A stretch of 64,000 bases of DNA from Terriglobia bacterium (lineage in GTDB: Bacteria > Acidobacteriota > Terriglobia > UBA7540), in contig JBEKEZ010000002.1 in the NCBI GenBank assembly GCA_050013575.1, forward strand, positions 192,736-256,735, read 5' to 3'. This document shows positions 48,951-64,000 of this stretch, piece after piece. A program made the position numbers and the translations under genes. The stretch's first letter is position 1. The number at the start of each line of letters is the position of its first letter. The notes beneath the pieces were generated by a model that worked only from the letters and a program-made list of their open reading frames with translations, was not told where the DNA came from and did no database searches.

Positions 48951-49175
48951 ATGATTCGCACGCAGGTGAGCCTCGACGAACGAGAGTACCAGTTGGCAAG
49001 GGAGGAAGCGGAAGCGCTGGGAATCTCGGTGGCGGAATACGTCCGCCGGGCGATTCGCCAAGTGCTTCCGCCTTCCGGCCACCCGGTCTGGATGCGATAC
49101 GCAGGACTGGTCGAGTCAGGCAATCCGCGGTCCAGCCAGTTGATCGATGACATCGTTTATGGCCGCAAAGACTGA
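48951..49175 (+). CDS. vapB: ribbon-helix-helix antitoxin
   Basis: MIRTQVSLDEREYQLAREEAEALGISVAEYVRRAI is an RHH/CopG-type fold signature. It overlaps the PIN gene. Confidence 0.7.
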   Translation: MIRTQVSLDEREYQLAREEAEALGISVAEYVRRAIRQVLPPSGHPVWMRYAGLVESGNPRSSQLIDDIVYGRKD

Positions 49176-49578
49176 GGCTTACGTCGACACCTCCGCTCTC
49201 ATTGCCTTTCTGGACCGGTCGGACAGCTACCATCCGCTGTTTCGGAGACTGTTTTCCAACCCACCGCGTCTCATTACCTCGTCGCTGGTCATCGCCGAAG
49301 GGCACGGGTGGTTTTTGCGGCGATACGACCATAACCGCGCCATCCAGTTTCTGAACTTCATCGACGATCTGTCGGTTCTGGCCATTCAGAGCTTCAATCG
49401 CGAGGAATTAGCGAAGACCAACCAACTGGTGAAGCGGTTTGCCGACCAGTCGCTGACGCTGGCCGATGCCCACGGCCTCGTCATCATCAATGAGCGCCGA
49501 ATTTCCACTTGCTGGTCGACCGACCGCCATCTGGCGCTCACTGGCGCGAGGTTGGTGATTTCCTCCGCCAGCATGTGA
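49159..49578 (+). CDS. vapC: PIN-domain toxin
   Basis: YVDTSALIAF (first acidic residue), a conserved E (VIAEGHGW) and D (LTLADAHGL). It overlaps the antitoxin stop by 17 nt. Confidence 0.8.
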   Translation: MAAKTEAYVDTSALIAFLDRSDSYHPLFRRLFSNPPRLITSSLVIAEGHGWFLRRYDHNRAIQFLNFIDDLSVLAIQSFNREELAKTNQLVKRFADQSLTLADAHGLVIINERRISTCWSTDRHLALTGARLVISSASM

Positions 49579-49943
49579 CTCCTGCGCGGCGCGTCCCGGG
49601 AAGCAGTCCATCCCGCGCGCAAATCGCTGAGCTGTTATCCGCGCATGATGCACTTCATCAGTTTTCTGCTGCTGGCAGCGGTTGCTCTGCCGATTGCCAG
49701 GTGTGGAGCGCACGTGGCGGCCAAGGTTCTTGATTGGCCTGAGCGCCGCAGGGCTCTGGCATAGAATCCGCACTAGCATGTGGCGCACCCGCACCCCCAG
49801 CGCATCTGTGAACCGAAGAATCCAAGAAATATGTTATCCTGAAAAGACAAATTTTATTTCGTGGCCGCATTTGGGTCTCATCACTATGCAAGACCCAGTG
49901 AGGTTGCTTGATGGGTGGGGGAAGAACAAGGAGGGTGCGCTAA

Positions 49944-51002
49944 ATGGAACCGACTGAAGCCGCCGTCGCTGCGGCCAGCGTGACTGAAGATCGCCCCGTC
50001 GAGGCGGAGGCCATCGACCAGGAGTCACGCGCTCGGAGAACAGATCCCGCGGTATTAAAAAGTCTGCTCGAGCAAATGTTGTTGATCCGGCGTTTTGAGG
50101 AGCGAGCCGCGGAGCTCTACACCATGGGAAAGATTGGAGGGTTTTGTCACCTCTATATCGGTCAGGAGGCGGTGGCAGTTGGCGCGCTTTCGACTCTCCG
50201 TAAGGAAGATTACATCCTCACCTCGTACCGCGAGCACGGGCATGCTTTGGCGCGCGGCGTCGATCCCGGCGAAGTGATGGCCGAACTCTACGGCAAGCAG
50301 AGCGGCGTCTCCGAGGGCAAGGGCGGATCGATGCATTTGTTCGACAAGGCCAGGGGATTTTTGGGCGGGCACGCCATCGTCGGTGGTCAGATCCCGTTGG
50401 CCACGGGCACGGCGTTCGCCGCAAAGTATCTCAAGCAACCGCGCGTCACGCTTTGCTTCTTCGGCGAAGCGGCGGTGAATATCGGCTCGTTTCACGAGTC
50501 GCTGAACCTCGCGGCGCTGTGGAAGCTGCCCGTCGTTTACATTTGCGAGAACAATCGGTTCGGCATGGGAACGCCGATTGAGCGCGCCTCGGCCTTGTAC
50601 GAACTTTCGCAGAAGGCTCTCGCTTACAACATGGCCCGCGCTCAGGTGGACGGCATGGACGTGCTGGCCGTGCGCGACGTGGTGATGGAGGCTGTCGAGC
50701 GGGCGAGGAATGAAGCTGCGCCAACACTGATCGAGGCGCGGACCTACCGCTTCATGGGCCACTCGATGTCCGATCCCGTTCACGGCCACTATCGCACCAA
50801 AGCGGAAGTGGAGGAGCAGAAGCGCCACGACCCGATCAGGCGCCTCGCTTCCACGCTCGAATCGATGGGGCTGATCACGCGCGAAGATATACGCGAGATC
50901 GATGGGAAGGTGAAGGAAATCGTTGAGGACGCGGTCGGGTTCTCCGAGCGCAGCGATGACCCGCACCCCTCACAGCTTTACGCCGACGTCTACACGCCGT
51001 GA
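49944..51002 (+). CDS. pdhA: pyruvate dehydrogenase E1 component, alpha subunit
   Basis: AAGGAGGG SD upstream. Motifs: LLIRRFEERAAELY, GFCHLYIGQEA and the ThDP region YICENNRFGMGT. Confidence 0.9.
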   Translation: MEPTEAAVAAASVTEDRPVEAEAIDQESRARRTDPAVLKSLLEQMLLIRRFEERAAELYTMGKIGGFCHLYIGQEAVAVGALSTLRKEDYILTSYREHGHALARGVDPGEVMAELYGKQSGVSEGKGGSMHLFDKARGFLGGHAIVGGQIPLATGTAFAAKYLKQPRVTLCFFGEAAVNIGSFHESLNLAALWKLPVVYICENNRFGMGTPIERASALYELSQKALAYNMARAQVDGMDVLAVRDVVMEAVERARNEAAPTLIEARTYRFMGHSMSDPVHGHYRTKAEVEEQKRHDPIRRLASTLESMGLITREDIREIDGKVKEIVEDAVGFSERSDDPHPSQLYADVYTP

Positions 51003-51115
51003 CGAAGAAGCGACGAGTGGCAAGTGGCGAGGAAGAGCCGCTCCCCACTGTGCCAGCCCCCTCCGGAGTCGCGAAAGGCGCGAGCCGGAAATTTGAACTC
51101 TGAAATTTGAAAAGC
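51001..51115. repeat. heptad-phased element in the pdhA-pdhB spacer (H6)
   Basis: gacgaag aagcgac gagtggc aagtggc gaggaag (51001-51035) and ggaaatt tgaactc tgaaatt tgaaaag (51088-51115). It shares the 15-mer agtggcaagtggcga with 46089-46103. Confidence 0.55.
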
Positions 51116-51125
51116 CGGAGACTAG

Positions 51126-52106
51126 ATGCCGATCATTACTTACCGCGAAGCACTCAACCAGGCCCTGCGCGAGGAATTGCGCCACGATGACCGCGTCTTC
51201 CTGATGGGCGAGGAAGTCGGCTACTACCAGGGCGCCTACAAGATCAGCAAGGGATTGTTGGACGAATTCGGACCACAGCGGGTTTTGGATACGCCCATCA
51301 CCGAGCTCGGCTTCACCGGGCTGGGCGTGGGCGCGGCCATGGCCGGCCTGCGGCCCATCGTCGAGATGATGACGTTCAACTTCGCTCTGCTCGCGATTGA
51401 CCAGATCGTGAACAGCGCCGCCAAGATGCTCTACATGTCCGGCGGACAGTGCCGCGTGCCGATGGTGATCCGCGGACCGGGCGGCGCCGGGCATCAGCTC
51501 GCGGCGCAACACTCACAAGCGCTGGAGTCCTGGTTTTGTCACGTCCCGGGTCTCAAAGTGGTCACACCGGCCACGCCCGCCGATGCCAAAGGACTCCTGA
51601 AGAGCTCGGTTCGCGATGACAACACCGTGATCTTCATCGAGTCGGAAGTGCTTTACGGAACCAAGGGCGAAGTGCCGGAGGGCGAGAATCTGATTCCGCT
51701 CGGCGTGGCGGAAATCAAAAGACCGGGCGGGCACGTCACCGTGATCGCGCACTCCAAGATGGTGCTGGTCGCGCTGGACGCTGCGCAGGAACTAGCGAAA
51801 GAAGGAATCGAAGCCGAAGTCGTCGACCCGCGCACGCTGCGTCCGCTCGATACCAACACGATCCTGGACTCAGTCAAGAAGACCAACCACGCCGTGATCG
51901 TCGAGGAAGGCTGGCCGTATTGCGGTGTGGGCGCGCAGATCTCGGATACGATCCAGCTTCACGCGTTCGATTATCTGGATGCTCCCATCTTGCGCGTGAC
52001 CGGCGCGGACGTGCCCATGCCTTACGCGAAGAATCTGGAACACGCGTGCCTGCCCGACAAAACCCGGGTGGTCGAGGCGGTGCACCAAGTTTTGAATCGA
52101 AAGTAG
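51126..52106 (+). CDS. pdhB: pyruvate dehydrogenase E1 component, beta subunit
   Basis: 326 aa. Motifs: MPIITYREALNQALREEL, GEEVGYYQGAYK and the transketolase-like Pyr and C-terminal domains. Confidence 0.92.
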   Translation: MPIITYREALNQALREELRHDDRVFLMGEEVGYYQGAYKISKGLLDEFGPQRVLDTPITELGFTGLGVGAAMAGLRPIVEMMTFNFALLAIDQIVNSAAKMLYMSGGQCRVPMVIRGPGGAGHQLAAQHSQALESWFCHVPGLKVVTPATPADAKGLLKSSVRDDNTVIFIESEVLYGTKGEVPEGENLIPLGVAEIKRPGGHVTVIAHSKMVLVALDAAQELAKEGIEAEVVDPRTLRPLDTNTILDSVKKTNHAVIVEEGWPYCGVGAQISDTIQLHAFDYLDAPILRVTGADVPMPYAKNLEHACLPDKTRVVEAVHQVLNRK

Positions 52107-52267
52107 GAATTAGGAACTAGGAACTAGGGATGGGGAATTTGGGGGCAGCGCAATTAAGAAATTCAAAAGTAAAAATTCAAAAGAAAGAACGCTCTGCTTC
52201 AATTTTGACTTTTTAATTTTGAATTGACAGACGAAAATCCTTCGTCCTTTCCTAATTCCGGATCCCT
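52104..52267. repeat. nested heptad-phased element in the pdhB-pdhC spacer (H7)
   Basis: taggaat taggaac taggaac tagggat ggggaat ttggggg (52104-52145). The first unit contains the pdhB stop codon. AT-rich inner hairpin: aagaaattcaaaagtaaaaattcaaaag with cttcaattttgactttttaattttgaattg. The outer arm is closed by cctttcctaattccggatccc (52247-52267). Confidence 0.65.
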
Positions 52268-52278
52268 GAGGAGAGCTT

Positions 52279-53721
52279 ATGGCGGCGCGTGTATTGATGC
52301 CGAAAGGCAGCGACACGATGACGGAAGGGAAAGTCCTGAAGTGGCTCAAGGGGGAGGGCGAATCGGTTGCCGCCGGCGACGCTGTGGTGGAGATTGAAAC
52401 TGACAAAGTGGACATGGAAGTTGAGACGTCGGGCGAAGGCGTTCTGCGGCAAATTCTGGTGAAGGAAGGCCAGACCGTTCCGGTGGGACAGTTGCTGGGA
52501 GTGATCGCGCCGCCGAACGAAGACATTGCGGCGATCATCAAGGAAGCTCAGGCCGCTCCACCGCCCGCGCCGCATCTCGAAGCCGAGCCAGCCCTGGCGC
52601 CCAAAGCTGCGGCGGCTCCTTCTGCGCCTGGAAGGCCCGCGGCGCCCGCCGCCGTTGGCGCGCCATCGGTTCCATCAGCACCCACGAGCGCGCGCGTCGC
52701 AGCATCCGAGCCGCAGCCTCGGCTGGCCGTGCCTGCTTCTCCGTCCCCAAGTGCAGTTGGCGAGCCCAAGGCCACGGCGGGGGCTCTAGCCGCAGTGCTC
52801 CCTCGCACCGACGGGGGCCGCGTTTTTGCGTCGCCCTTGGCGCGACGGATTGCCAGGGACAAGGGCGTGGATCTGAGCCTCGTCAGCGGAAGCGGGCCGG
52901 GAGGAAGAATCGTTCGCGAGGATGTTGACCGCGCGCTCGCCAGTGTGGCGGCCGCTCCTCTGGCGCAGGGTGCGGCAGTGGGCGGCGCAGTTCGCGCGGC
53001 GACTCCAGCGCGACCGGTCTTTGTGCCGGGTGGGCCGGAAGTCCACGACGAGCCTTTGAGCACGATGCGGAAAACCATCGCCACGCGCCTCACGCAGAGC
53101 TTGGGTCCGGTGCCGCATTTTTATCTGACCATCGAAGTGGACATGCGCCGCGCCATGGAGCTGCGCGAGTCGGCGAACAATCTCGATCCGGAATTGAAGC
53201 TGACCTACAACGACATCATCGTCAAGGCCTGCGCTGCGGCTCTGCGGGCGCATCCGGAGGTGAACGCGTCTTTCATCGGTGAAGCGATCCGCACTTACAG
53301 CCGCGTGCACATTGGCGTCGCGGTGCCTGTGGACGGCGGCGGCCTGATCACGCCGGTGATCCGCGACTGCGATCAGAAGAGCTTGCAGCAAATCTCGGAC
53401 GAGGCCAAAGAGCTGATCGCCCGCGCGCGCAGTCGGAAACTGAATCCCGACGAGTACACGGGCGCGACGTTCAGCGTCTCGAACCTGGGCATGATGGGCA
53501 TCGATCAGTTCTCCGCCATCATCAATCCGCCCGAGGGCGCGATCCTCGCCGTGGGCGCGGTGGTGGAGAAACCCGTGGTCACCGACCATCACGTCGGCAT
53601 CGGCCACCGCTGCCGGCTGACGCTCTCCTGCGACCATCGCGTGGTGGACGGAGCCACCGGCGCGAGGTTCCTCCAGACCCTGCAATCGATCCTGGAGAAT
53701 CCGGTTTACTTGGCGTTCTGA
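52279..53721 (+). CDS. pdhC: dihydrolipoamide acetyltransferase (E2)
   Basis: Lipoyl domain (VVEIETDKVDMEVE), an Ala/Pro linker, a peripheral-subunit-binding domain (ASPLARRIARDKGVDL) and the catalytic motif DHRVVDGA. Confidence 0.92.
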   Translation: MAARVLMPKGSDTMTEGKVLKWLKGEGESVAAGDAVVEIETDKVDMEVETSGEGVLRQILVKEGQTVPVGQLLGVIAPPNEDIAAIIKEAQAAPPPAPHLEAEPALAPKAAAAPSAPGRPAAPAAVGAPSVPSAPTSARVAASEPQPRLAVPASPSPSAVGEPKATAGALAAVLPRTDGGRVFASPLARRIARDKGVDLSLVSGSGPGGRIVREDVDRALASVAAAPLAQGAAVGGAVRAATPARPVFVPGGPEVHDEPLSTMRKTIATRLTQSLGPVPHFYLTIEVDMRRAMELRESANNLDPELKLTYNDIIVKACAAALRAHPEVNASFIGEAIRTYSRVHIGVAVPVDGGGLITPVIRDCDQKSLQQISDEAKELIARARSRKLNPDEYTGATFSVSNLGMMGIDQFSAIINPPEGAILAVGAVVEKPVVTDHHVGIGHRCRLTLSCDHRVVDGATGARFLQTLQSILENPVYLAF

Positions 53722-54005
53722 GTCTTCGGGATTCCGTGATAGCTCGTTCCATCAATTTTCGCACATGCCGCCGAAAGTAAACGGCATGTCCATACTACAA
53801 GTGTTATATACAGCTGTATATAATGATGGTGTAATATCGCATAGGCATCGGAATCCACTTCCGCCCCAATCGTTCGATAGGCCGTGATCCGACACGGCGG
53901 GTTGGCACCCGCGTTTGAGTAAGGGGCTGTGGGAAGGCGGGTTGCGGCCGAAGAGATATTTTGACGGGTGGGGCGAAATTTGCACCCTTGGGGTGGGAGA
54001 TGCAG

Positions 54006-54431
54006 TTACACTCGGGCATGCGCGAACCCGAGAAGCCTTCTCCGACCGAATCGCCGATGTTGTTTGATCCCGCAAAGCGGGACCGAGCCCGCATCGGAAT
54101 CGCTCACGGCGCTGGGCGTAGCGGGGAAGCGAATGCCCCACATGTCGCCTTCCGCCTGGAGGAGTTGAAGGCCGAGATGGTAGAACCCCTCGCGGTCCGT
54201 GGTATTCACCCAAACGACGCTGAAGGTGCCTGCGACGTCGTTCTTCGTGCTCACCACGTGTACCTCTGAGTCCAGTTCCACAAGATTCTTGATCCGAGTC
54301 ATGCACCCGTGCTGGCTGATCAGGATGGTTTGTGTCGATTCGTCAAAAAACTTGTTTTCTGTGGACATGCCGCGCACTCGAATGGGCAGAGCTAACATCA
54401 CTCGAGCGCTTCTGCGGCGGGCGTCATCCAT
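54006..54431 (-). CDS. PilZ-domain protein
   Basis: 141 aa. An RRSARV...PIRVRG N-motif followed by a D/ExSxxG-like segment ESTQTILISQHGC. Confidence 0.55.
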   Translation of the reverse strand: MDDARRRSARVMLALPIRVRGMSTENKFFDESTQTILISQHGCMTRIKNLVELDSEVHVVSTKNDVAGTFSVVWVNTTDREGFYHLGLQLLQAEGDMWGIRFPATPSAVSDSDAGSVPLCGIKQHRRFGRRRLLGFAHARV

Positions 54432-54730
54432 CTACATGTCGATTCAATAAAATAGCGAGGAGCGCCCGTTCACGTCTTGACACGACCTCCCCATCCCAGG
54501 TTTCCCCAGGACAGGCAATTCCCCCGTTCAAGCTTATCGGGTTATTTTACCACGGCTTGAGGCGAGCGGCGGGGAGCGGCTCGTTGGGTAGGGCGGAGAA
54601 CTCTTGCATCTTCCCAGTTGTGGCCCAATCGAGGAAGGAAAGTGCACTCGCAAGTCATCGCTGGCCGTCCGGCTTTTGGGAATTCTGACCGCGCATGACA
54701 CAGTCCGATTTCAAGAGATCGGCAACGCCC

Positions 54731-55024
54731 TCACATGTTAGTGACGCCTGGAGAGGTTGCTTCCGCGTTGCTGCCGTCGAACACAAAGCTCTGCGCGCTG
54801 CATTTCGAGGCGGTCGAGCCAATCGTCATTGCGCCCTTCACGTTTGAGGGCCAGACGAAGGTCCTGCTGCCGGTCGAGTCCTGGCAGATGATGAAGTTCA
54901 ATTGCTCGCCCGCAGAAGCGTTGGCGAGCGTCGAACTGGTGACGTTGCCGGTGAGCGTAATCTTTTGGGTGTTGCCGAGGGACGCGTCGAAGGTAGGCGT
55001 CCCTGAGAACGTCACGACGTTCAG
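54731..55024. repeat. dispersed repeat copy 2 (encodes the shared C-terminal module)
   Basis: See 5442-5735. My hand count is 75 of 97 identical residues, with no gaps. Confidence 0.8.
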
Positions 55025-57916
55025 TGATGTGGCAAAGTTTCGCGCCGTAACCGCGCCCGTGCCGCTAGGCGTGAGTGTGACGTTCTGGTTCGTTCCGCCC
55101 GCGGTGAGCGAGATGGCGCCGGTCGACGTCACGCCCCCATTGATCACGGGCGAGGTCAGCGTCTTGTTAGTCAACGTGTCGACAGAAGCCCTGTAGACGA
55201 AGGTGTCGGTCACGTCTTGCAGGGTCTGGGTGCGCGCGCCTGTTGCCGTGCCGGTGACTTTGATGTTGTTGGTAGCCGCACTGCCCAGCCACAGGTTGCC
55301 GAACGGGAGCGAGGCCGACCCAAGGTCCCCGACGCCGGCGGAGGAGGGTGTGATCGTCTGCGGTACGCTGAGCGCGCTCGCTCCGAAGATATAAGATTTG
55401 GTGCCGTTCGAGGCTGTCAAGACAAACTGTGAAGACGAAGGATTGAGGTAGAGAGAGTCCGACCCCGCAGCGTCAGAGTTTATCATGTCGTAGACGGGCT
55501 GATTGGCGGAACAGTTCGTGCCCGTGTTGACGGGGGTCCCGTTATTCACTTGCGCAGCCGGGCAGCCAATCCGGATGGCTGCGCCACCGTAAACGCTGGG
55601 GGCAGTCGGGAGCCACATTCCGTAGAAGAATAGCCCTTGAGCAGTGATCACGGCAGGCGGCGAGAAGGGAGCCCCATTGACATAGTCCGCATACTCTGAC
55701 GGGTCGTTCAAATTTTGGACGCCAATCGCATTTTCGCTCCTCTGCCATCCGTGCCCGGACAGTTGAATCAGCATCGTGCTGCTCGGCGCGTTCCCCACGT
55801 AGGGCAATAATTTGTGCACGCCGGAGAACACGTTCGCGCTGGAATCGAATTGCCAGTAGTGTTGATTTTCGACCATCTCGCCGCTTGCCCAGTTGACGTT
55901 GTTCGGGGCCAGCGTTGCCGTGTCCGAAAGCTTCCCGTTTTGCTGCCACGAAAGAACCTCGGCCCCCGGAAAAACGTAGTACTGGTTGGACTGCTGCCAG
56001 CCCGTGCAGGTGGGTGGCGAGCAGCTTCCGCTGATCCCATGGCCGGAGTAACCGATTCCGTTGTTGCCAACCGCCCATGGAATCAGGTGGGAGCTGTCAG
56101 TGACGGCAAGTATCGGGAACGCCTGACGAACACAGTTCACCGCGGGCGAGACTCCGCACGTCGAACTATATCCAGCCTCGCCGTAACGGTCCGAGACCAA
56201 CTCGACATAGTAACCCGCGCAGGCTCCAGCGTTGCCCGATGCGCACGCGCCACCGTTGGCAATGCTCACTACCGCTCCCGGAGGGTGCGGCTTATTGAAA
56301 GTCGCAGTGAAGGCGGTTTGAGGGTTTCCGGAGAAGGCAGTGGCTTTCACAATTTCGTAACTTCCGTCATCGCCGATGACGATGGGCGTGTTAGTGGTGA
56401 CACCGCTCAAGTTCGTCCCCATGGTGTAACTGGCCGGCGTCACTGTGCAGGTGGCAGGCAGGGTGGTAGTAGGGTTGCAGTTCGGACCCGGGATCGCAGC
56501 GTCGGTCAGGGCCAGCACGGTGTTCGCAGTCCACGACGTGCCGTTGCCAACATACTGCGGCCAGGTCCATGCGCCGAGGTTATACGTCCCAAGGGAAGAG
56601 AGCGTGCCATTGCTGCCTTTGGAAATATCGAGCAACGGGCGCCCGGCGCCCTGCTCGGTCTCGGACTGGAGATTGCTCACGGTGATCTGCGTGGCCCCTT
56701 GAGATAATGCAGGGCAGGAGGGCGGACCACAGATCGTGCCGGAGTATACGTCACTCACCTGATAAGCGGTGAAGCCGGCCGACTCCAACCCCTCGTCACC
56801 CATCGTGCTCGCGCCTCCGTAGTTCATGCTCAACACTTCGAGGCCGATGGTGTCGCCCGTCGCCCCGCTGAGCGTCTGGATGCTCAGAGGAATGTGTTCA
56901 GCAGGCGTGTAGTACTGTCCGGCGATGTTAACGGCCTTGAAGACGCTTTTGTCGGCGTAATAGGGCCAGTTGTAGAGATTCCTTCCGCCATCAAAGACCT
57001 TCTGGGAAAACTCGTTTTCCACTACATTCATGAACTGAGTATAGCCGCTGCTTCGGTAGCGATTCCCCACCCACTGATTGCCGACGATGAGATTCGGAAG
57101 GCCGCCGCTGTCAGTCGCGTTGCCCGGCGAATCGTAGTTGGTGACGTGAAGCCCGTCGCGGAAGTCCCAAACCTGGAGATTGGGACTATTCGAGCACCCA
57201 TTGGAGTTACCTGTCATCGAGGTGATGCCGCTGTAGATACTGCCCGCGCCGCAGATTGCCTCCGTGGAGCTGGACTTGCTCGCGGGATTCACGATGAGCG
57301 CGCCGTTCGTTCCGGCATTTGAGATGGCGCTGGCACAAGGCGTGGAACCGGAAAATTGGTCGCAGAATCGCGTGGCCTCGACGTGACCCGTGGAGTCGGT
57401 GCCCAGCGGCTGCGGCACAGACCAAGTTCGCACGTCGGTGATCGAGTTGATGGACGAGCTCCCCGTGCTGACTTCCGCCAGAGGGACTTGACCGGCGACG
57501 AAGCCGCTGGTGTTAGAGGCCGGCACACAGTTATTGGCTGGGTCCAGATACACGTAATTCGTCGCGCTCGCGGTCATGGGCAGGGTGCCGCCGGGATAGC
57601 TGACTGGGGCCTGCGGATTGCCGCAAAAAGCCGTTCCCGCGGCAATGTTCACGTTGGGCCAAGTCCCCGCCGTCACCCAATAGCCAGGACCCACGCCCTG
57701 GACGTACTTCGCATTGACGGCGTAAACGGGCTGGCCGCCTTCCGCCTGCGGCTGCTGCCCCAAAACTAGTGACGAGTGACGAGTGAAGAGTGACGAGCAA
57801 GTTAGAACGACCACGATCAGAGCAACTCGCAGCGCATCGTGCCCGTTCCGACCCCTGACTCCTGACTCCTGACTCCTAACTTCTAGCTTTTGACTTTTAG
57901 ATGCTGCTTTCAACAT
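54731..57916 (-). CDS. large tail-fibre-like secreted protein (1061 aa) with conserved leader and C-terminal module
   Basis: GAGGTG SD 5 nt before the ATG. Leader: MLKAASKSQKLEVRSQESGVRGRNGHDALRVALIVVVLTCSSLFTRHSSLVLGQQPQ. Fibre-type motifs: DLGSASLPFGNLWLG and DTLTNKTLTSPVING. The Gly/Thr/Ser/Asn/Cys-rich body and the C-terminal 97 aa are shared with the 5442-7085 protein. Confidence 0.75.
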   Translation of the reverse strand: MLKAASKSQKLEVRSQESGVRGRNGHDALRVALIVVVLTCSSLFTRHSSLVLGQQPQAEGGQPVYAVNAKYVQGVGPGYWVTAGTWPNVNIAAGTAFCGNPQAPVSYPGGTLPMTASATNYVYLDPANNCVPASNTSGFVAGQVPLAEVSTGSSSINSITDVRTWSVPQPLGTDSTGHVEATRFCDQFSGSTPCASAISNAGTNGALIVNPASKSSSTEAICGAGSIYSGITSMTGNSNGCSNSPNLQVWDFRDGLHVTNYDSPGNATDSGGLPNLIVGNQWVGNRYRSSGYTQFMNVVENEFSQKVFDGGRNLYNWPYYADKSVFKAVNIAGQYYTPAEHIPLSIQTLSGATGDTIGLEVLSMNYGGASTMGDEGLESAGFTAYQVSDVYSGTICGPPSCPALSQGATQITVSNLQSETEQGAGRPLLDISKGSNGTLSSLGTYNLGAWTWPQYVGNGTSWTANTVLALTDAAIPGPNCNPTTTLPATCTVTPASYTMGTNLSGVTTNTPIVIGDDGSYEIVKATAFSGNPQTAFTATFNKPHPPGAVVSIANGGACASGNAGACAGYYVELVSDRYGEAGYSSTCGVSPAVNCVRQAFPILAVTDSSHLIPWAVGNNGIGYSGHGISGSCSPPTCTGWQQSNQYYVFPGAEVLSWQQNGKLSDTATLAPNNVNWASGEMVENQHYWQFDSSANVFSGVHKLLPYVGNAPSSTMLIQLSGHGWQRSENAIGVQNLNDPSEYADYVNGAPFSPPAVITAQGLFFYGMWLPTAPSVYGGAAIRIGCPAAQVNNGTPVNTGTNCSANQPVYDMINSDAAGSDSLYLNPSSSQFVLTASNGTKSYIFGASALSVPQTITPSSAGVGDLGSASLPFGNLWLGSAATNNIKVTGTATGARTQTLQDVTDTFVYRASVDTLTNKTLTSPVINGGVTSTGAISLTAGGTNQNVTLTPSGTGAVTARNFATSLNVVTFSGTPTFDASLGNTQKITLTGNVTSSTLANASAGEQLNFIICQDSTGSRTFVWPSNVKGAMTIGSTASKCSAQSFVFDGSNAEATSPGVTNM
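57778..57902. repeat. two heptad-phased arrays inside the leader coding region (H8)
   Basis: agtgacg agtgacg agtgaag agtgacg agcaagt (57778-57812) and cctgact cctgact cctgact cctaact tctagct tttgact tttagat (57854-57902). About 5 of 7 positions per unit are complementary between the arrays. Confidence 0.6.
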
Positions 57917-57999
57917 ACGATCACCTCATGGACCTGGCTTCAAAATCACCAGCAAGGGCAGGCCTTAATTCAAAGTCGTGCGCTAATGGCGCCGCACGC

Positions 58000-58662
58000 T
58001 TACCAAATCTGAATGCTCGCCGTGACCCCCGCATCCGAGGCGGTGAGATACAGGTTGGTAGCGTCGAACAGAGTTGTTGGTTGAAACCACAGCGCTCCGC
58101 CGGAGGTCATGTAAATGATTGCGCCCAGCGGTGCCCGCCCAAGATTGTGGTTAGTTGAAAAATTGCCCGCTGCCGCGGCACTCACGGCCAGCCGACCGTA
58201 AACCTTGGTGGCGTTTGTCACCGCGAGGACGTGGGTCGCGTCGGTGGTCACGCTGCCGAGATATGCGTCGCCCGGCGTTGCCGGCGACCCCGTCAGATTG
58301 AAATAGAACCCGGTGATCGAACTCCACCACAGGAAACTCGTGGAGCTGGCCGGCGCCGCTGAGGGGGTCGGGGACGAAGGAGCCCAGCGCATTCCTTGCG
58401 CGTAGAGCACTCCCGGTGAAAGACCCGGCGTCAAATTCGCCGAAGTTGCAAGCGTGAAGCCGGCGATCACACCAGATAGGCCAATGTCGCCAAGCCACGC
58501 GGCGACAGTCCCAGCGGCCAGGACCGCATTCCGGACGTCGTTGGCGTCCTGCAAAAGCGAGTCAATGGTCTGCCAGTTGGTGTCCAGGTCAGTTTCGTAG
58601 TTGTTTCCGTGCTGCGGCTCGATAATTCCTTTTCGCGGCAAAACTGTTCTTACGATCGCCAT
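58000..58662 (-). CDS. short tail-fibre-like protein (220 aa)
   Basis: Start set at MAIVRTVLPRKGIIEPQHGNNYETDLDTNWQTIDSLL. This has the LP-x-P...W...N...ID pattern common at the N-termini of phage fibre and minor tail proteins. The C-half is Ala/Gly/Thr/Ser-rich and beta-like. The ORF track extends to 58815. Confidence 0.6.
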   Translation of the reverse strand: MAIVRTVLPRKGIIEPQHGNNYETDLDTNWQTIDSLLQDANDVRNAVLAAGTVAAWLGDIGLSGVIAGFTLATSANLTPGLSPGVLYAQGMRWAPSSPTPSAAPASSTSFLWWSSITGFYFNLTGSPATPGDAYLGSVTTDATHVLAVTNATKVYGRLAVSAAAAGNFSTNHNLGRAPLGAIIYMTSGGALWFQPTTLFDATNLYLTASDAGVTASIQIW

Positions 58663-58672
58663 GTTCGAAATC

Positions 58673-58707
58673 CAGGAATCGGGGATAGGGGATTCGAGAT
58701 TAGCCAA
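58673..58707. repeat. heptad-phased array (H9)
   Basis: caggaat cggggat aggggat tcgagat tagccaa, immediately upstream of the 220-aa gene start. Confidence 0.5.
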
Positions 58708-58760
58708 AGCAAAAGGCGCTTCGGCAAACCCCGTTCCCCAGCTCCTAAGCCCTGACCTCC

Positions 58761-59264
58761 TTAATCTGATGAGACTCCGAGCGGCAGATTCACGCTCGAT
58801 CTTGTGGCCAAGCAATACACTTTCACCGTGCCGTCATTAGTCGGGGTTTCTGCGCCGCCCCCCACGTAGTAACTGACCACCGTGGTCACTATGCCGTTGG
58901 CGTCGTTGATGTCCACGATCCATCTGTAAATTTGTCCCGCGCCGCCGTTTGAATTCGAGAGCGACGGGAAAGCAGTTTGTCCCGGCGTGAATCCCGGCCC
59001 CGGCGGGCGGCTCGCTGCAAAAATAGGGATGAACAGGCACTCAGGATAAGAATACTGGTAACCATCGACCGGGCTGGCCGGCACGGGCACGGTGTTCCCA
59101 TTTGCGTAGAAGCCCATATAAATCAACTCGGGGCGCACCGCGGCAAACTTGGCGTTCTGCGAGATCTTGATCATGGAATAGTCGGTGAGCGGCTGGTTTG
59201 CCGAAATCGAGGCGTCGGGCAAATCGATGAAACCGGGTATGGCGCTGAGCAATAGCTGGGACAT
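58761..59264 (-). CDS. hypothetical protein (167 aa)
   Basis: ATG preceded by a GAGGAG SD. No signal peptide and no family recognised. It is co-oriented between the giant protein gene and the fibre-like genes. Confidence 0.6.
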   Translation of the reverse strand: MSQLLLSAIPGFIDLPDASISANQPLTDYSMIKISQNAKFAAVRPELIYMGFYANGNTVPVPASPVDGYQYSYPECLFIPIFAASRPPGPGFTPGQTAFPSLSNSNGGAGQIYRWIVDINDANGIVTTVVSYYVGGGAETPTNDGTVKVYCLATRSSVNLPLGVSSD

Positions 59265-59345
59265 GGTTAATCTCCTCTATAATTGCCGAAGGCGGATGGA
59301 CGAATGAAAGCGCTTTGTTCCAATCATCAATCGTCGTGCAAAAAT

Positions 59346-62300
59346 CTAAAAAATGGTGTTTCCCGGCGTGCCATCGCTATACGTCCCGCCCGTCGCGCTT
59401 GCCGAGATCACCATGTACTCCGCCTTCTGCGCTGGCGTCAGGTCGGCCCAAACCGGCAAACCAAGCGACGCCGGCGCGATCTGATAGGGCGTCGAAAGAC
59501 CCATAAACCGGGCATCGAGCAGCTCAAACTGCATTTGGCCTTTGGCGTAGCTGGGTTGACGGCTCATCACCTTGCAAAGAACGTTGGAAATCCCCACTCC
59601 GCCATTGCCCTGGGGATTCAGGTCCGTCACTTTGCGATGTGAAAGAGTAACGTAATCCCCCACTTCCACCCCGACCGCGCTCAAGAAGGAAGTCACCTTA
59701 TACCGTGGCGTATCAAAGGCGTAACTGCGGAACAGCCAGTCCGCCAGCAGATACGACCACAAATAGCCGCCGTAATTCACTCGCAACCCGGTGGACTCCA
59801 CCTGTTGGTTGTAAACGTACTTGTGCAGATTGATGGAATCGTTTTCCTGAAAAAACCACTGGTTCTGGAACCCGCGGGCCGCCGACATGGGCCCGCCATC
59901 GTCGGGTTCAAGGCGCGTAGTCAGCATGTTGACCACCGGGTCGCGGGTGACCTCGGGAATGCCGATCACGTTGGAGTCCGTAAAGGAATAGACTGGCGTC
60001 AGGCCGGCGGGATTCTTGACGGGCACCAGTGAAATTGCGCCGGACGCGCGGATGACCACGACCAGTCCGAGCGGCTTGAGGATGTAATCCTCGATCCAGC
60101 TTTTTGCCTGCATGCCTGTCGTGATGGTGAACTCGAAGTGCGCGCCGCCGTATATGCCATCGCGTAGCGCCAGAATGCCTGGGATATCGATAAATGGGTT
60201 GGGATTTATCAGTGTTTCCGGGTGGCCGGGAACGTACTTCACCCAGTAAGGATTGGCCATCACTTGGCTGGTCGTACCGACGCCAGTCAGGATCGGGGTC
60301 AAGGCGGGGTCCTGGCCCACGCCGAGCTCATTCTGAAGCGCGGCCAGTAACAAGTCGAGTGGATGGCCGGAAAGTTGGCGCGGGTTCTTGTCAGAAGTGG
60401 GAAAGGCGTTCGCGAGCCACGAATCGCCAATGGGAAACGGCGGAGCGGGCTGGCCGGGCAGCCACTCGCTCGGGCCGCCATTGGGCCAAATCATCGCACC
60501 CGCGATATACCGCTGCAAATCCGAGCACGTAATTTGCACTTTGCCGTCGGATGAAAATCCCACACCCTTGATGGTGACGGTGTGCAGCGGCATGAAGTCA
60601 TTGAGCGCCAGGCCGGAGAAGCCCATCGAAAACACCGCGATCTGGCCAATCAGCGCTTGCTGCGCCGCCAGCGAGCGCAGCGAGCCGCCCGGGTCGTTGC
60701 ACTCGATCGTAAACTCGCCCACGTCGCTCGATCCTTCCGAGTCTCGAATCGCCTGGCTCGGCCCGTCCGGCAAGACCATATTGGGCAGCAACTGTGATTG
60801 CGTCGAACTCGAGAGTACGAGCGTGGGGTTAGTGGCCGTAATCCACATCCAGGCGGTCGGCGCGAGCATCGGCCAGACCTCGAACTCCCACGGCAGCCCG
60901 CGCGCCGCGAGCGAATAACCCACCAGCGACCCGTTCCCCGTGGCTTGCAGGATGTTGCATTGGCCAGTGACGAGGGCGGAGAGCACGGCGTCCGTCGTCG
61001 TGCCGAGGCCGGCGAAATAATCGGCTAGGCCAGGCGTCGAATAGAGCCGGAGAAGCGCCGCGATCATCCCCCAGGTTCCTTCTTGCCAGACGGACGCCGG
61101 AGATCCCGAATAGCCGCCGGAAGAATCGTTGTAAGGCTTCATCCCGCTGAAAGGGGTGGCGAGAGCATAGGCTTCGTTCCAGGTGCTGGCGCCGTTCGAC
61201 TTGACGATGGTTTCGTTGTTGAGCAGGAAATTCGCGTAGGCGAACTCGAGGCACTGGAGCGCAATGTCGTCGCGGGCGTTGGCGTCGGCGAGCATCGCGG
61301 TCCATGCTCCACTGGCATCGAGCGCCTGGCTCGTGTCGAGCCCGCTGGCGCTCGCTCCCTGCGCGAAATGGCCGGGCACGTTGCCGGCTGGCGCGATATA
61401 GAGACCGGCGAGAAGGTTCGTCCATATCGTCGCAGCGGCGGTGCTCAGCATCGTAGCCAGTGCTGTCAATGAAGAGGCTTGCGCAGAAGTAAGTTGACCC
61501 GTTTTAATGAGATTCAAGGAGGCCGTGGGCAGCAGCGCCGCGGCGCGCGTAAAGGCAAACCACAAGTCCACCTGATGCTCGGTTGAAACGGCCAACTGTT
61601 CGCCCGGAACGAATTGGTAGCCTGGGTCCTGATATTGCCCGTAGCCCATGTAGAACAGTCCGTTGGTCAGGTCACTCGCGCTGCTTTGCAAAGTCAGCAG
61701 GAAATTCAGCATCCGTTGCAGATAGAGGACATGGGAAAAGTCCGTTGACATCTGCATGTAAAGCGCGTAGGCGTAACACACCCAGGCCATCGCTCCGGTG
61801 CGGATGTAGGCTTGGTCGATCTGGCCATTGTAAACGTCATAAGAAAAGCTCAGCGAGTCCGCCGGCTGGATGTTGCCGATGCTTAGGTTGTCAAATTTAA
61901 GATCTCCCGCCGCGTCCAGCGTGATCCTGAACCCGGTAATGGAGCTGAGGGTGTCCGAAGCGAGCGAAGAAATCAGAGAGGCCAGGTTGACAAGTTGGGT
62001 GCGGTACGTGCCTGCGCCCGGACCGATCGCCAGGGTGATGGTTTTGGTTCCGGCGTTGAATAAGGCCGGGGCCTCCGCGCCGGAAGTCACCAGCACATCC
62101 GTCACCGCGCCGTTCGCCGTTGTCACCGAAATGTCAAAACTGAAACCGACGCCGGCAGCCTCGCTGTGTTGCCACTCGATTTGACTCTCCGTCGATGCGG
62201 GAAGGCCGCTGCCCGTATAAGTGAAATAGTCCCCCGCGTTCGCGGCGTGGAAATCGACCACCAGGCCGGCGCCGTAGGGCGGCTCAGTCGGATCGTTCAC

Positions 62301-63803
62301 GTCAGTGATCGAGTCTGAGGCGTTTGATTTGTTCCAGCGCGAGGCCGAATTGCCATCTTCCCCGTTTTCCAGGACGGCATTCGCGAGGTAGCCGGGATGA
62401 TCGAGCAGGTCATTCAACTGCTGGATGACCTTTTGTGCCGAGGCAAAATTTCCCGAAGCGCTGTAGGCAATAATGGCTAGGGCGTCGTCGTAGATGAAAC
62501 TGCGATTCTGCAGCGCGGCGGCGTTTGACAGTGTGGGGTTGGGATCGTAAAGCGGATCGGAAGTGGGAACATCGAACGAGCGCGCCAAGCCCTGGTAGGC
62601 GGCCAGGCTCTGCATGGATGAATAGACCGTAATCCAGCCGGCCACGGGGTCGTTATAGAGCACGTGGACCGTGGGCGCGCCCTCGCCGGGCCAGACGCTC
62701 GAGCCGCAGCGCGCGTGGAAATCGTCAGCCTGCATGAGGATGGGGATATTGTCTTCCTGCAGGTATTCAATGTCGGTCTTCACAAAAACCTGCGCTTTGT
62801 AGTTCGAAAGCTGGCTGCCGATCCCCATGTTCGAGTGGGCCACCCACCCGGCCGGCACTTGCGCGCCGCTCCAGCCGCTGGCGGGCTGGGCAACGCTGGC
62901 GGGATAGAGCACAGCCAATAGCAGGCCCGGCGCCACGCTGGCCACGCTGAACGTTCCGGCGCTCTCGAACGCATCGCCACCGAGCGCGGTTGTATAGAGA
63001 GACGAGCTGCCTTGGTAGTAGAAGACGTCAGTGTGGACGAAGAGGTCGACGCGATAATACGAGAGAGGCCGAAGCAAATTGAAAACGTAACCCAGGGCCA
63101 GCCAGCCGACGTTTTGGTAGCCCAGCGCCACCAGCTTCCACACCTGCGCGTCGTCGCCCGTCAGGGCGCCCAGCGTCGCCGGCCAGTTGGGAGGGTTGCC
63201 GCCGCCGCAACCGGCAATCCCGCTGGCGCACGTCTGGCCGGTCACCAGCGCCATTTGCGTGTTGTTGTTTGAGTCCACGATCATCTGCCCGAAACTGTAA
63301 ACGGCGCCCGCCACCCACTTCGCGTAGACGCCGGGCGTTTGCGGCGGGCCGGGCGTCAAGTTGGCGCTGCCGTCGGAAAGCAGGTAATTGGTGGCGGCGA
63401 TCATGGCCGGGGTAATCTGGTAAGAGTTCACCAGAAGCGAGCCCCAGCCGAGCGGCTGCGGCGACTCGTTAATGGGGTAGCCGTCCGGGCCAAGCTGTGT
63501 GTCCGGATAGAGGCCGGCGGGAAGCTGAAGCACAATGTTTTCAATTTGGTTATAAAGGAAGGGCGTGCCCTGCGCTTCACTGACCATCTGCCCGGTAATG
63601 AAGTTGGTTTCAGACGAGAGCCCGCACTCGATGAATCCGCTGGATTGGCCCGGCGTCTGCGGAGAAGGCGTCGCGCCAGCCGTCAGGAGTGCGTTCGCCT
63701 GCCAGTTGCCGACCGGCCCCGTCTGCCGGGCCAGTAGCCACGCCACCGCCTTGTTCAAATCCGCGTAATATGAGCCAGGATAATAGCCTTTAACCGCGGC
63801 CAT
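59346..63803 (-). CDS. giant (about 1485 aa) multidomain protein: six-hairpin (alpha/alpha)6 glycosidase-like region plus phage tail-hub/host-specificity-like C-terminal region
   Basis: Start set at ATG 63803, with a GGAGG SD 5 nt upstream. Toroid-type helix pairs: YDDALAIIAYSASGNFASAQKVIQQL, LQRMLNFLLTLQ, AVSTEHQVDLWFAFTRAA, VWQEGTWGMIAALLRL, LAPTAWMWI. A beta-sandwich insert is present. The last ~500 aa are beta-rich (FTIECNDPGGSLRSLAAQQALIGQIAVFSMGFSG...). No signal peptide. Confidence 0.65.
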   Translation of the reverse strand: MAAVKGYYPGSYYADLNKAVAWLLARQTGPVGNWQANALLTAGATPSPQTPGQSSGFIECGLSSETNFITGQMVSEAQGTPFLYNQIENIVLQLPAGLYPDTQLGPDGYPINESPQPLGWGSLLVNSYQITPAMIAATNYLLSDGSANLTPGPPQTPGVYAKWVAGAVYSFGQMIVDSNNNTQMALVTGQTCASGIAGCGGGNPPNWPATLGALTGDDAQVWKLVALGYQNVGWLALGYVFNLLRPLSYYRVDLFVHTDVFYYQGSSSLYTTALGGDAFESAGTFSVASVAPGLLLAVLYPASVAQPASGWSGAQVPAGWVAHSNMGIGSQLSNYKAQVFVKTDIEYLQEDNIPILMQADDFHARCGSSVWPGEGAPTVHVLYNDPVAGWITVYSSMQSLAAYQGLARSFDVPTSDPLYDPNPTLSNAAALQNRSFIYDDALAIIAYSASGNFASAQKVIQQLNDLLDHPGYLANAVLENGEDGNSASRWNKSNASDSITDVNDPTEPPYGAGLVVDFHAANAGDYFTYTGSGLPASTESQIEWQHSEAAGVGFSFDISVTTANGAVTDVLVTSGAEAPALFNAGTKTITLAIGPGAGTYRTQLVNLASLISSLASDTLSSITGFRITLDAAGDLKFDNLSIGNIQPADSLSFSYDVYNGQIDQAYIRTGAMAWVCYAYALYMQMSTDFSHVLYLQRMLNFLLTLQSSASDLTNGLFYMGYGQYQDPGYQFVPGEQLAVSTEHQVDLWFAFTRAAALLPTASLNLIKTGQLTSAQASSLTALATMLSTAAATIWTNLLAGLYIAPAGNVPGHFAQGASASGLDTSQALDASGAWTAMLADANARDDIALQCLEFAYANFLLNNETIVKSNGASTWNEAYALATPFSGMKPYNDSSGGYSGSPASVWQEGTWGMIAALLRLYSTPGLADYFAGLGTTTDAVLSALVTGQCNILQATGNGSLVGYSLAARGLPWEFEVWPMLAPTAWMWITATNPTLVLSSSTQSQLLPNMVLPDGPSQAIRDSEGSSDVGEFTIECNDPGGSLRSLAAQQALIGQIAVFSMGFSGLALNDFMPLHTVTIKGVGFSSDGKVQITCSDLQRYIAGAMIWPNGGPSEWLPGQPAPPFPIGDSWLANAFPTSDKNPRQLSGHPLDLLLAALQNELGVGQDPALTPILTGVGTTSQVMANPYWVKYVPGHPETLINPNPFIDIPGILALRDGIYGGAHFEFTITTGMQAKSWIEDYILKPLGLVVVIRASGAISLVPVKNPAGLTPVYSFTDSNVIGIPEVTRDPVVNMLTTRLEPDDGGPMSAARGFQNQWFFQENDSINLHKYVYNQQVESTGLRVNYGGYLWSYLLADWLFRSYAFDTPRYKVTSFLSAVGVEVGDYVTLSHRKVTDLNPQGNGGVGISNVLCKVMSRQPSYAKGQMQFELLDARFMGLSTPYQIAPASLGLPVWADLTPAQKAEYMVISASATGGTYSDGTPGNTIF

Positions 63804-63873
63804 CGTGCCTCCGCCACCCCTGTCGCCGATGAACGACCGTGGAACTTTTTCCACCCATCAGCAAGCGTCCGGA

Positions 63874-64000
63874 TCAAATGCCGTAACCTCCCAGCCCATA
63901 GGGGATCACCCCGTAGCCGCCCAGGAGCGTAATCAAACCGGCCGAGAAGCTGGACAGGAAAATGCCGAACGCTGGAATCTGCAGCACGTAGAGCGGCTGC
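63874..64000 (-). CDS. 3' end of an upstream co-oriented gene (partial)
   Basis: Own translation gives ...QPLYVLQIPAFGIFLSSFSAGLITLLGGYGVIPYGLGGYGI* with the stop at 63876-63874. The tail is hydrophobic and Gly-rich. The 5' part lies outside the window. Confidence 0.35.
   Translation of the reverse strand, partial: QPLYVLQIPAFGIFLSSFSAGLITLLGGYGVIPYGLGGYGI

Follow-up and report, generated by a model that had tools for sequence, protein, structure and literature searches.

The distal part of a complete phage late region, comprising lysis, packaging, head and tail genes, lies at positions 54731-64000 of a 64,000-nucleotide stretch from a Terriglobia bacterium (contig JBEKEZ010000002.1, assembly GCA_050013575.1; hereafter the window). 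The cluster to which these genes belong spans ~30.2 kb on one strand, from the start of its first gene (g286) to the stop codon of the gene for a 1061-aa tailspike-like protein (54731 to window-equivalent ~84,950). We think it probable that this is a non-autonomous late-gene cluster that is vertically retained in Terriglobia and is either defective-prophage or gene transfer agent (GTA)-like, because no recombinase, repressor or replication gene was found in it, dtd adjoins it in every related genome examined and its genes are under purifying selection.

Five co-oriented genes beside pdhABC and a PilZ-like gene had been described in a reading of the sequence alone (hereafter the sequence-only reading), and an open reading frame (ORF) list and frame translation confirmed all five, with their sizes and coordinates:

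63874-64000, minus strand: 3' part of g58, a small hydrophobic Gly-rich ORF of 58 aa (frame translation ...QPLYVLQIPAFGIFLSSFSAGLITLLGGYGVIPYGLGGYGI*)
59346-63803, minus strand: 1485-aa protein (the giant), tail hub class with an N-terminal enzyme-like extension
60804-62516, minus strand: within the giant, a carbohydrate-binding module (CBM)-like beta-sandwich (aa ~470-650) inserted in an (α/α)6 toroid (aa ~430-470 and ~650-1000)
59349-60779, minus strand: within the giant, a gp27-like tail hub fold (aa ~1009-1485), from AlphaFold2 (AF2) and Foldseek
58761-59264, minus strand: 167-aa protein, conserved and hub-associated
58000-58662, minus strand: 220-aa protein, short-fibre or fibre-adaptor-like by position and motif
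54731-57916, minus strand: 1061-aa protein, modular and tailspike/fibre-like, last gene of the cluster

The last 42 codons of g58 fall within the window and its start corresponds to window-equivalent position 64050. It lies between a 127-aa Dit-like gene and the hub gene, is called as a 58-aa gene on identical contigs and has homologs (41-62% identity) at the equivalent position in relatives. The giant starts at an ATG with GGAGG upstream, which gives 1485 aa; the longest ORF, from a GTG, has 1502 aa. The 220-aa gene is listed among the ORFs with 271 aa, starting at a TTG further upstream, and public gene calls and homolog alignment favour 220 aa. The flanking genes are pdhA, pdhB and pdhC (49944-53721, plus strand) and the PilZ-like ORF (54006-54398, minus strand), and the GC content of the cluster (~0.6) equals that of the flanking host DNA.

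Other phage hallmarks are not visible within 54731-64000, as the sequence-only reading had stated, because the window edge cuts the cluster. Beyond position 64000 the statement fails: the head and tail genes continue on an identical contig. This is a 340-kb JGI contig with 100% identity to the window over 10 kb, which was walked upstream for 29 kb past the window edge to give a 43.6-kb composite; the exact sequences of the giant and the 167-aa protein also occur on many public peat and soil metagenome contigs. From the far left to the right-hand host genes, the region reads as follows:

IstB fragment, Toast_rack, Peptidase_S15, 95-aa gene and 510-aa gene, cluster strand: far-left genes, in this order
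L102:6228-7049, cluster strand: metallo-beta-lactamase (MBL)-fold gene (273 aa) with a Pfam Anti-Pycsar_Apyc1 match, just left of dtd
dtd, opposite strand: between the MBL-fold gene and g286
g286 (286 aa), first cluster gene: endolysin-like, with lysozyme-like motifs and weak SLT, Muramidase and PDB endolysin matches
61-aa, 180-aa, 114-aa, 104-aa and 369-aa genes: after g286, in this order
Large terminase (TerL), after the 369-aa gene: Pfam Terminase_6N/6C
Portal, after TerL: Pfam Portal_Mu
Protease/scaffold, after the portal: Pfam Mu-like_Pro_N
137-aa gene, after the protease/scaffold: PHROG head scaffolding
Capsid (311 aa), after the 137-aa gene: Pfam Phage_cap_E, weak
161-aa, 175-aa and 184-aa neck genes, in this order: the 175-aa gene is Phage_tail_S; PHROG Neck1/tail completion
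L005:1837-4899: 1020-aa fibre-like gene, followed by a 557-aa gene (L005:4947-6620), between the neck and tube genes
199-aa tube-like gene, after the 557-aa gene: PHROG Ig/major tail
L005:7474-8215: overlapping 177-aa and 72-aa ORFs, between the tube and tape-measure-like genes
297-aa gene: tape-measure-like, Ala/Gly-rich, weak assignment
127-aa gene: Dit-like, Pfam Dit_like with E 0.07, weak assignment
g58, giant, 167-aa, 220-aa and 1061-aa genes: end of the cluster, in this order, then the PilZ-like gene and pdhC (opposite strand)

Pfam families on the identical contig are precomputed calls; a direct Pfam scan of a relative (L075) found Terminase_6N/6C, Portal_Mu, Mu-like_Pro_N, Phage_cap_E and Phage_tail_S as well. 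Virion morphogenesis and lysis modules are both present, with TerL, portal, protease/scaffold, capsid, neck, tube and hub, and with weak endolysin-like and holin-like assignments. Small transmembrane proteins and a holin-like protein are encoded near the start of the cluster. Several transmembrane segments are predicted in the 180-aa protein, which matches phrog_1544 (E 1e-24), the 104-aa gene is weakly winged-helix-turn-helix-like and the 369-aa gene occupies the position of the small terminase (TerS). Portal and capsid are 31-37% identical to cultured siphophage proteins.

The late region stands without recognisable mobility genes. Integrase, transposase, repressor and replication Pfam families are absent from the called genes between dtd and pdhC, and over the ~34 kb between host metabolic genes neither Pfam nor PHROGs revealed an integrase, DDE transposase, repressor or replication gene; several small ORFs, among them that of the weakly winged-helix-turn-helix-like 104-aa protein, are unassigned. 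The left ends of four further relatives likewise have no integrase, recombinase or transposase Pfam families. An IS21 IstB fragment is located 7 kb further left, with host-like genes between it and the cluster. The two boundary regions, each scanned separately, yielded no direct repeats.

The left junction was compared between this contig, NCBI GCA_054639455.1, ENA ERZ27256801, JGI Ga0373629 and IMG/VR UViG_3300031670_000658. All five show the 510-aa gene, optionally the MBL-fold gene, dtd and then a g286 homolog. The MBL-fold gene, with its Apyc1 match, adjoins the cluster in three of the five (this contig and two relatives); Anti-Pycsar_Apyc1 is a phage anti-defence nuclease family. Flank proteins are 58-81% and cluster proteins 53-94% identical to those of this genome, and cluster divergence tracks flank divergence, the closer relative being closer in both sets. 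One provirus called in IMG/VR is 29.4 kb long and starts 123 bp ahead of g286, and thus corresponds to the cluster alone. Two IMG/VR scans with left-end proteins yielded no relatives. The synteny comparison proposed in the sequence-only reading showed that the order 127-58-hub-167-220 is kept in relatives and that the last gene varies.

Selection was estimated pairwise (NG86) against the closest relative for 19 gene pairs, 16 from the cluster and three from the host flanks. The dN/dS ratio was 0.05-0.36 in 17 of them, dS being not computable for the 127-aa and 167-aa genes, and dS amounted to 0.67-2.2 vs 1.4-2.2 in the flanking host genes. The structural genes are therefore under purifying selection, a property that active phages also have. 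With mobility genes lacking and the left junction recurring, a GTA-like candidate therefore stays alive and is preferred here: the cluster would be a vertically retained, non-mobile, particle-producing element, comparable to a PBSX-type defective prophage or a GTA.

Several observations weigh against such retention. About one third of the ORFs have no assignable function, and a novel recombinase or regulator could hide among them. The right flank is not conserved: it consists of PilZ-pdhCBA in this genome and of DUF2335 with a decarboxylase in the closest relative. To the left of the 510-aa gene, every genome examined has different DNA, so that what is conserved may be a larger movable block. 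The giant is 44% identical to that of the closest relative, as against 80-94% for neighbouring genes; the low identity extends over the 127-58-hub-167 block (41-50%; L107:10315-14289), with tube, 220-aa protein and capsid at 80-94%. This pattern implies that the hub module was probably replaced by recombination with other lineages, as happens in active phages. TerL is frameshifted in the closest relative, GCA_054639455.1, into ORFs of 375 and 207 aa (L099:2971-4718 / L105:14361-16108), which may reflect decay, an assembly error or a programmed event. Finally, virion proteins normally have no signal peptide and are assembled in the cytoplasm, and the Sec leaders on the 1020-aa and 1061-aa fibres misfit such assembly.

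Part of this evidence would also suit an ordinary functional temperate prophage, whose integration and early functions reside in unrecognised cluster genes or outside the stretch examined. Such a prophage would explain the intact ORFs for a full complement of lysis, packaging, head and tail functions, the classification of relatives as viral contigs in IMG/VR, the hub and fibre mosaicism typical of exchanging phages, the flanks that differ on the right and outside the 510-dtd block, and the many unannotated ORFs. It is harder to reconcile with the missing integrase, DDE transposase, repressor and replication genes, with one and the same dtd junction in five of five genomes whose flank proteins are only 58-81% identical, and with the lack of direct repeats inside each boundary region, scanned on its own. 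Moreover, no IMG/VR relative exceeds the cluster in length. We consider an ordinary prophage rather unlikely. The sequence-only reading had proposed a prophage module with its remainder beyond position 64000; the remainder exists, but a complete ordinary prophage was not found, given the lack of mobility and replication genes and the recurring junction.

A dead, functionless remnant that has merely not yet decayed is less probable still. The lack of mobility and regulatory genes and the split TerL of one relative would fit a remnant, but ~27 consecutive ORFs are intact here, syntenic ORFs occur in many divergent genomes, and neutral decay would have destroyed ORFs at saturated dS, where dN/dS is 0.05-0.36. 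A headless phage-tail-like bacteriocin (tailocin), as the tail-tip genes visible within the window might by themselves suggest, is excluded because capsid, portal, protease/scaffold and TerL genes are present in the same operon, in which no sheath gene was identified. The sequence-only reading had paired tailocins with GTA-like domesticated modules; the latter half of that proposal is the preferred reading, still as a candidate. We also rejected a Mu-like transposable prophage, since no transposase was found and the junction with dtd recurs.

We are highly confident in the identification of a tail hub and fibres. Sequence searches with the four complete window proteins gave no Pfam match (none at E <= 0.1 for the giant) and, in PHROGs, only weak 'tail fiber' matches to the toroid of the giant (aa 652-770); PDB sequence searches were empty, whether run with single sequences or, in the case of the giant, 167-aa and 220-aa proteins, with profiles of their families. 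More than 215 full-length homologs of the giant were found, all annotated as 'hypothetical' and all from Terriglobia/Acidobacteriota. They are essentially without Pfam domains, three longer variants carrying PF13385. The giant was assigned by fold. Residues 400-1485 were modelled with AF2 from a 40-sequence alignment (mean predicted local distance difference test (pLDDT) score 77.7, predicted template modelling (pTM) score 0.66), and domain ranges were taken from the secondary structure of the model, not from the Foldseek match ranges.

The hub domain matches PDB structures at E 1e-6 to 1e-4 with TMt up to 0.63. These include the NF5 tail-associated lysin (9m7n), Listeria gp18 (3gs9), phiCD508 (9g8s_q, TMt 0.63), Milano, MuSo2 gp44-like (3cdd), JBD30 (8rk3_b), T5/DT57C pb3, Chi, VgrG, the pyocin R2 hub and RcGTA (6tba_8A, E 1e-4). 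In BFVD, the matches are named 'Tail protein', 'Tip attachment protein J', 'Central tail hub' and 'XkdQ-related' (E down to 8e-15). The hub gene is located downstream of the tape-measure-like and Dit-like genes, both weakly assigned. Foldseek matches of the toroid to PDB entries comprise D-glucuronyl C5-epimerase (E 1e-9), GH100 invertase and GH78 rhamnosidase, and the sandwich matches CBM16 and FAP20 jelly rolls. The fusion of a tail-tip-like C-terminal part to a glycosidase-like toroid, as read from the sequence, is thus borne out by the model. Among cultured phages, the sole tblastn match is a Coprococcus phage protein with 29% identity over aa 650-993, and residues invariant in homologs include E742, H743 and D746. 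The CBM and toroid region probably binds or cleaves polysaccharide, as judged from these predicted folds.

Canonical Tal/J proteins have an N-terminal hub domain and a C-terminal functional extension. According to the secondary structure of the model, the giant is inverted, with toroid and CBM before the hub. It would trimerise as a tail hub via its C-terminal gp27-like domain, with the N-terminal CBM and (α/α)6 toroid pointing outward to bind or cut surface polysaccharide.

The 167-aa and 220-aa genes always follow the hub gene in relatives, the 167-aa gene directly. Their syntenic homologs have identities of 50-58% (167 aa; L093, L094 and L107) and 50-80% (220 aa), and neither protein has a match in Pfam, PHROGs, PDB or cultured phages (tblastn). 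The 220-aa protein begins with MAIVRTVLPRKGIIEPQHGNNYETDLDTNWQTIDSLL, its N-terminus is invariant (MAxVRTVL..PQHG..YE.D.D.N) and its gene is under purifying selection (dN/dS 0.13). The sequence-only reading had pointed to this start motif; it is present, but the description as typical of fibres found no counterpart in the databases searched. By position, the two proteins may act as conserved partners of the hub, and position and motif together suggest a probable role as short fibre or fibre adaptor for the protein of 220 aa.

The 1061-aa protein, which carries DLGSASLPFGNLWLG and TLTNKTLTSP as noted from the sequence, is a member of a large, mosaic tailspike/fibre family. It consists of a leader, a conserved N-module (aa ~50-180), a lineage-specific centre and a conserved C-module (aa ~930-1061). 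Its 3274 representative homologs share only the N-module and/or the C-module, and their centres are unrelated, with pectate-lyase-like beta-helix, endosialidase N-terminal and tailspike Ig-like domains; beta-helix and endosialidase Pfam families occur in at least 15 of 40 relatives. The centre of the 1061-aa protein itself has no recognisable Pfam domain. Its C-module matches Arthrobacter phage Jinkies gp36 (47%), has a weak precomputed Pfam Phage_phiTE_241_C match and, in all other tblastn matches, is again the matching part. The AF2 model has a mean pLDDT of 52 and is confident only in the N- and C-modules, the centre being below 50; the best Foldseek matches are tailspikes, at weak E-values of 0.008-0.05 and with this poorly modelled centre. 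In relatives, the last gene encodes 989 aa or 2529 aa or is absent, which is the usual behaviour of a receptor-binding gene. The protein would serve as an exchangeable tailspike-like receptor-binding or depolymerase module.

An apparent Sec-type leader had been remarked on in the sequence-only reading as something a virion protein should not need. The leader is real and conserved in 45 of 50 homologs, and its coding sequence contains two repeat arrays:

57758-57916, minus strand: extended leader of the Sec/signal peptidase I type in the 1061-aa protein (MLKAASKSQK...VALIVVVLTCSSLF...LVLG, followed by QQPQAEGG)
57850-57881, minus strand: heptamer array AGGAGTC x4.6 (coding strand) in the leader (Tandem Repeats Finder)
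57768-57797, minus strand: heptamer array CGTCACT x4.3 in the leader (Tandem Repeats Finder)

Conservation was scored with a hydropathy/QQ-site heuristic: in the 45 homologs, a conserved QQ site is preceded at a distance of 4-18 residues by a hydrophobic 10-mer, and in 40 cases position -1 is A, G or S. The leader fits the n-, h- and c-region layout of a signal peptide with a small -1 residue, cleavage being a prediction, and the AF2 model has a helix at aa 28-39. Some gene callers start the gene at TTG codon 52, which yields 1010 aa. A start-codon artefact was rejected because 45 of 50 homologs show the hydrophobic segment together with the QQ site and because a Shine-Dalgarno-like GAGGTGA stands in front of the upstream ATG. 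The 1020-aa protein, which has the fibre-type repeats STDWSTFNSK and WRGDGTWATP, and all five of its homologs examined have a leader that ends in ...PSAFA followed by (N/G)T(Q/H)VTG or a close variant. The Cys-rich 557-aa protein has a canonical leader and is absent from all related loci compared. The 1061-aa, 1020-aa and 557-aa genes are those that vary in presence and position among relatives.

The 5' end of the 1020-aa gene (L005:1845-2020) also contains heptamer arrays (GAAATCA and CTTTCTG) in its leader-coding part. A change in heptamer copy number would shift the frame, and the AGGAG repeats resemble stacked ribosome-binding sites. Phase variation at these arrays was rejected, as array length is constant in seven independent assemblies.

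The three signal-peptide proteins could alternatively be secreted depolymerases or adhesins that benefit the host (morons) and are not part of the virion, in which case the tail module ends at the 220-aa gene. The conserved Sec-type leaders speak for this, as do the variability or absence of the genes (L093 has none after a 250-aa gene), their shifting position between relatives and the polysaccharide-lyase-like beta-helices in homolog centres. On the other hand, a conserved N-module with an exchangeable distal part is the classic signature of a virion-attached receptor-binding protein, the C-module is common to cultured phage proteins, and there is weak fold similarity to the N-terminal attachment domains of tailspikes. 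We therefore regard secreted morons as a possible but doubtful interpretation, and keep to that of tailspike-like proteins.

Compared to the siphophage hub/Tal/J class (lambda gpJ, T5 pb3, SPP1/TP901-type Tal, A118-like gp18 3gs9, Mu gp44-like 3cdd and JBD30 8rk3), the last ~480 aa of the giant match in predicted fold, its gene follows tape-measure-like and Dit-like genes, and it has an enzyme-like fusion, as many Tal proteins do. It differs in its C-terminal hub and N-terminal extension of ~1000 aa, in an extension made of CBM and (α/α)6 toroid instead of a peptidase or lysozyme, and in the lack of detectable sequence similarity to Pfam or PDB entries.

The cluster resembles RcGTA and PBSX as a head-plus-tail cluster without integration and replication genes, with the same left-hand neighbour in the five divergent contigs compared, purifying selection and a short tape-measure-like protein (297 aa). 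Its size of ~30 kb, its own lysis genes, its Mu-type head genes, its non-conserved right flank and its mosaic hub block set it apart. The sole link to RcGTA itself is the fold-level hub match (6tba_8A, E 1e-4). With Mu-like siphoviruses (B3/D3112/JBD30) it shares Portal_Mu, the Mu-like protease/scaffold, Phage_tail_S (Mu gpG-type), a T4/Mu-type TerL, lysis genes placed just ahead of those for packaging and a hub that resembles the JBD30 baseplate protein. In contrast to these phages, it has no transposase A/B, repressor or early region, its insertion is not random (dtd junction in all five) and its proteins are at most 37% identical to any cultured phage protein. The 1061-aa family is similar to the tailspikes of P22, CBA120 (TSPs) and Acinetobacter phage Solidus (gp83) in its conserved N-module, swappable centres and weak fold matches, and differs from them in its extended Sec-type signal peptide and in the centre of the 1061-aa protein, which is poorly modelled and without recognisable domain.

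Some further features of the locus were recorded. The intergenic region between dtd and g286 (L102:7587-8032; window-equivalent ~84947-85392) contains a promoter-like block conserved in five genomes, with three to four tandem 9-mers that covary with lineage (ATAGTTTCA-type here, TAGTAAC in L105, CGTCCCA-type in L106 and L112); a late activator or a host regulator might use this block as its operator. The overlapping 177-aa and 72-aa ORFs occupy the position of the tail assembly chaperone pair, which usually uses a programmed frameshift. Directly after the last cluster gene, on the same strand, the PilZ-like ORF encodes 130 aa with an RRxxR motif; no Pfam match is recorded for it, and among the relatives compared none was found to have a homolog following the fibre gene. 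Toxin-antitoxin pairs (PIN plus a small ORF, HicB, and DUF433/DUF5615) and the IS21 IstB fragment are found near the variable outer flanks (window ~49159-49800; relatives L105 and L109), and this clustering suggests a recombination-prone neighbourhood. No tRNA genes were found within the 64-kb window, and no Rfam families or meaningful promoter or terminator sites in the scanned regions 53500-64000 and 53700-59400.

Acidobacteriota are among the most abundant soil bacteria. To our knowledge, their phages and routes of gene exchange are almost unknown. Surveys of Acidobacteria prophages exist, and the small part of the literature consulted describes no GTA-like system for Acidobacteriota. A conserved, intact, non-mobile late-gene cluster at one site in many Terriglobia would be a new candidate domesticated system for gene transfer or killing. 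More speculatively, and with a good deal less confidence than we place in its non-autonomous nature, a Terriglobia clade may possess a vertically inherited, host-retained GTA-like or PBSX-like particle system derived from the late region of a Mu-type siphovirus and equipped with the Sec-exported 1061-aa and 1020-aa tailspike-like families. If true, this would be the first GTA-like or PBSX-like particle system in Acidobacteriota, and its Sec-exported tailspike-like proteins would be added to particles outside the cytoplasm or, alternatively, would be depolymerases that clear the exopolysaccharide of the producer for particle release or uptake. Should none of these readings be correct, the five genes belong to the tail module of an ordinary prophage, truncated by the window edge. 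The inverted Tal architecture with its (α/α)6 enzyme-like module would widen the design space of tail tips. Family-wide Sec leaders on tailspike-like proteins, which make up thousands of sequence clusters, contradict the usual rule of cytoplasmic assembly, and exported fibres would suggest either that an assembly route has gone unrecognised or that phages carry secreted polysaccharide depolymerases with a bearing on soil carbon turnover.

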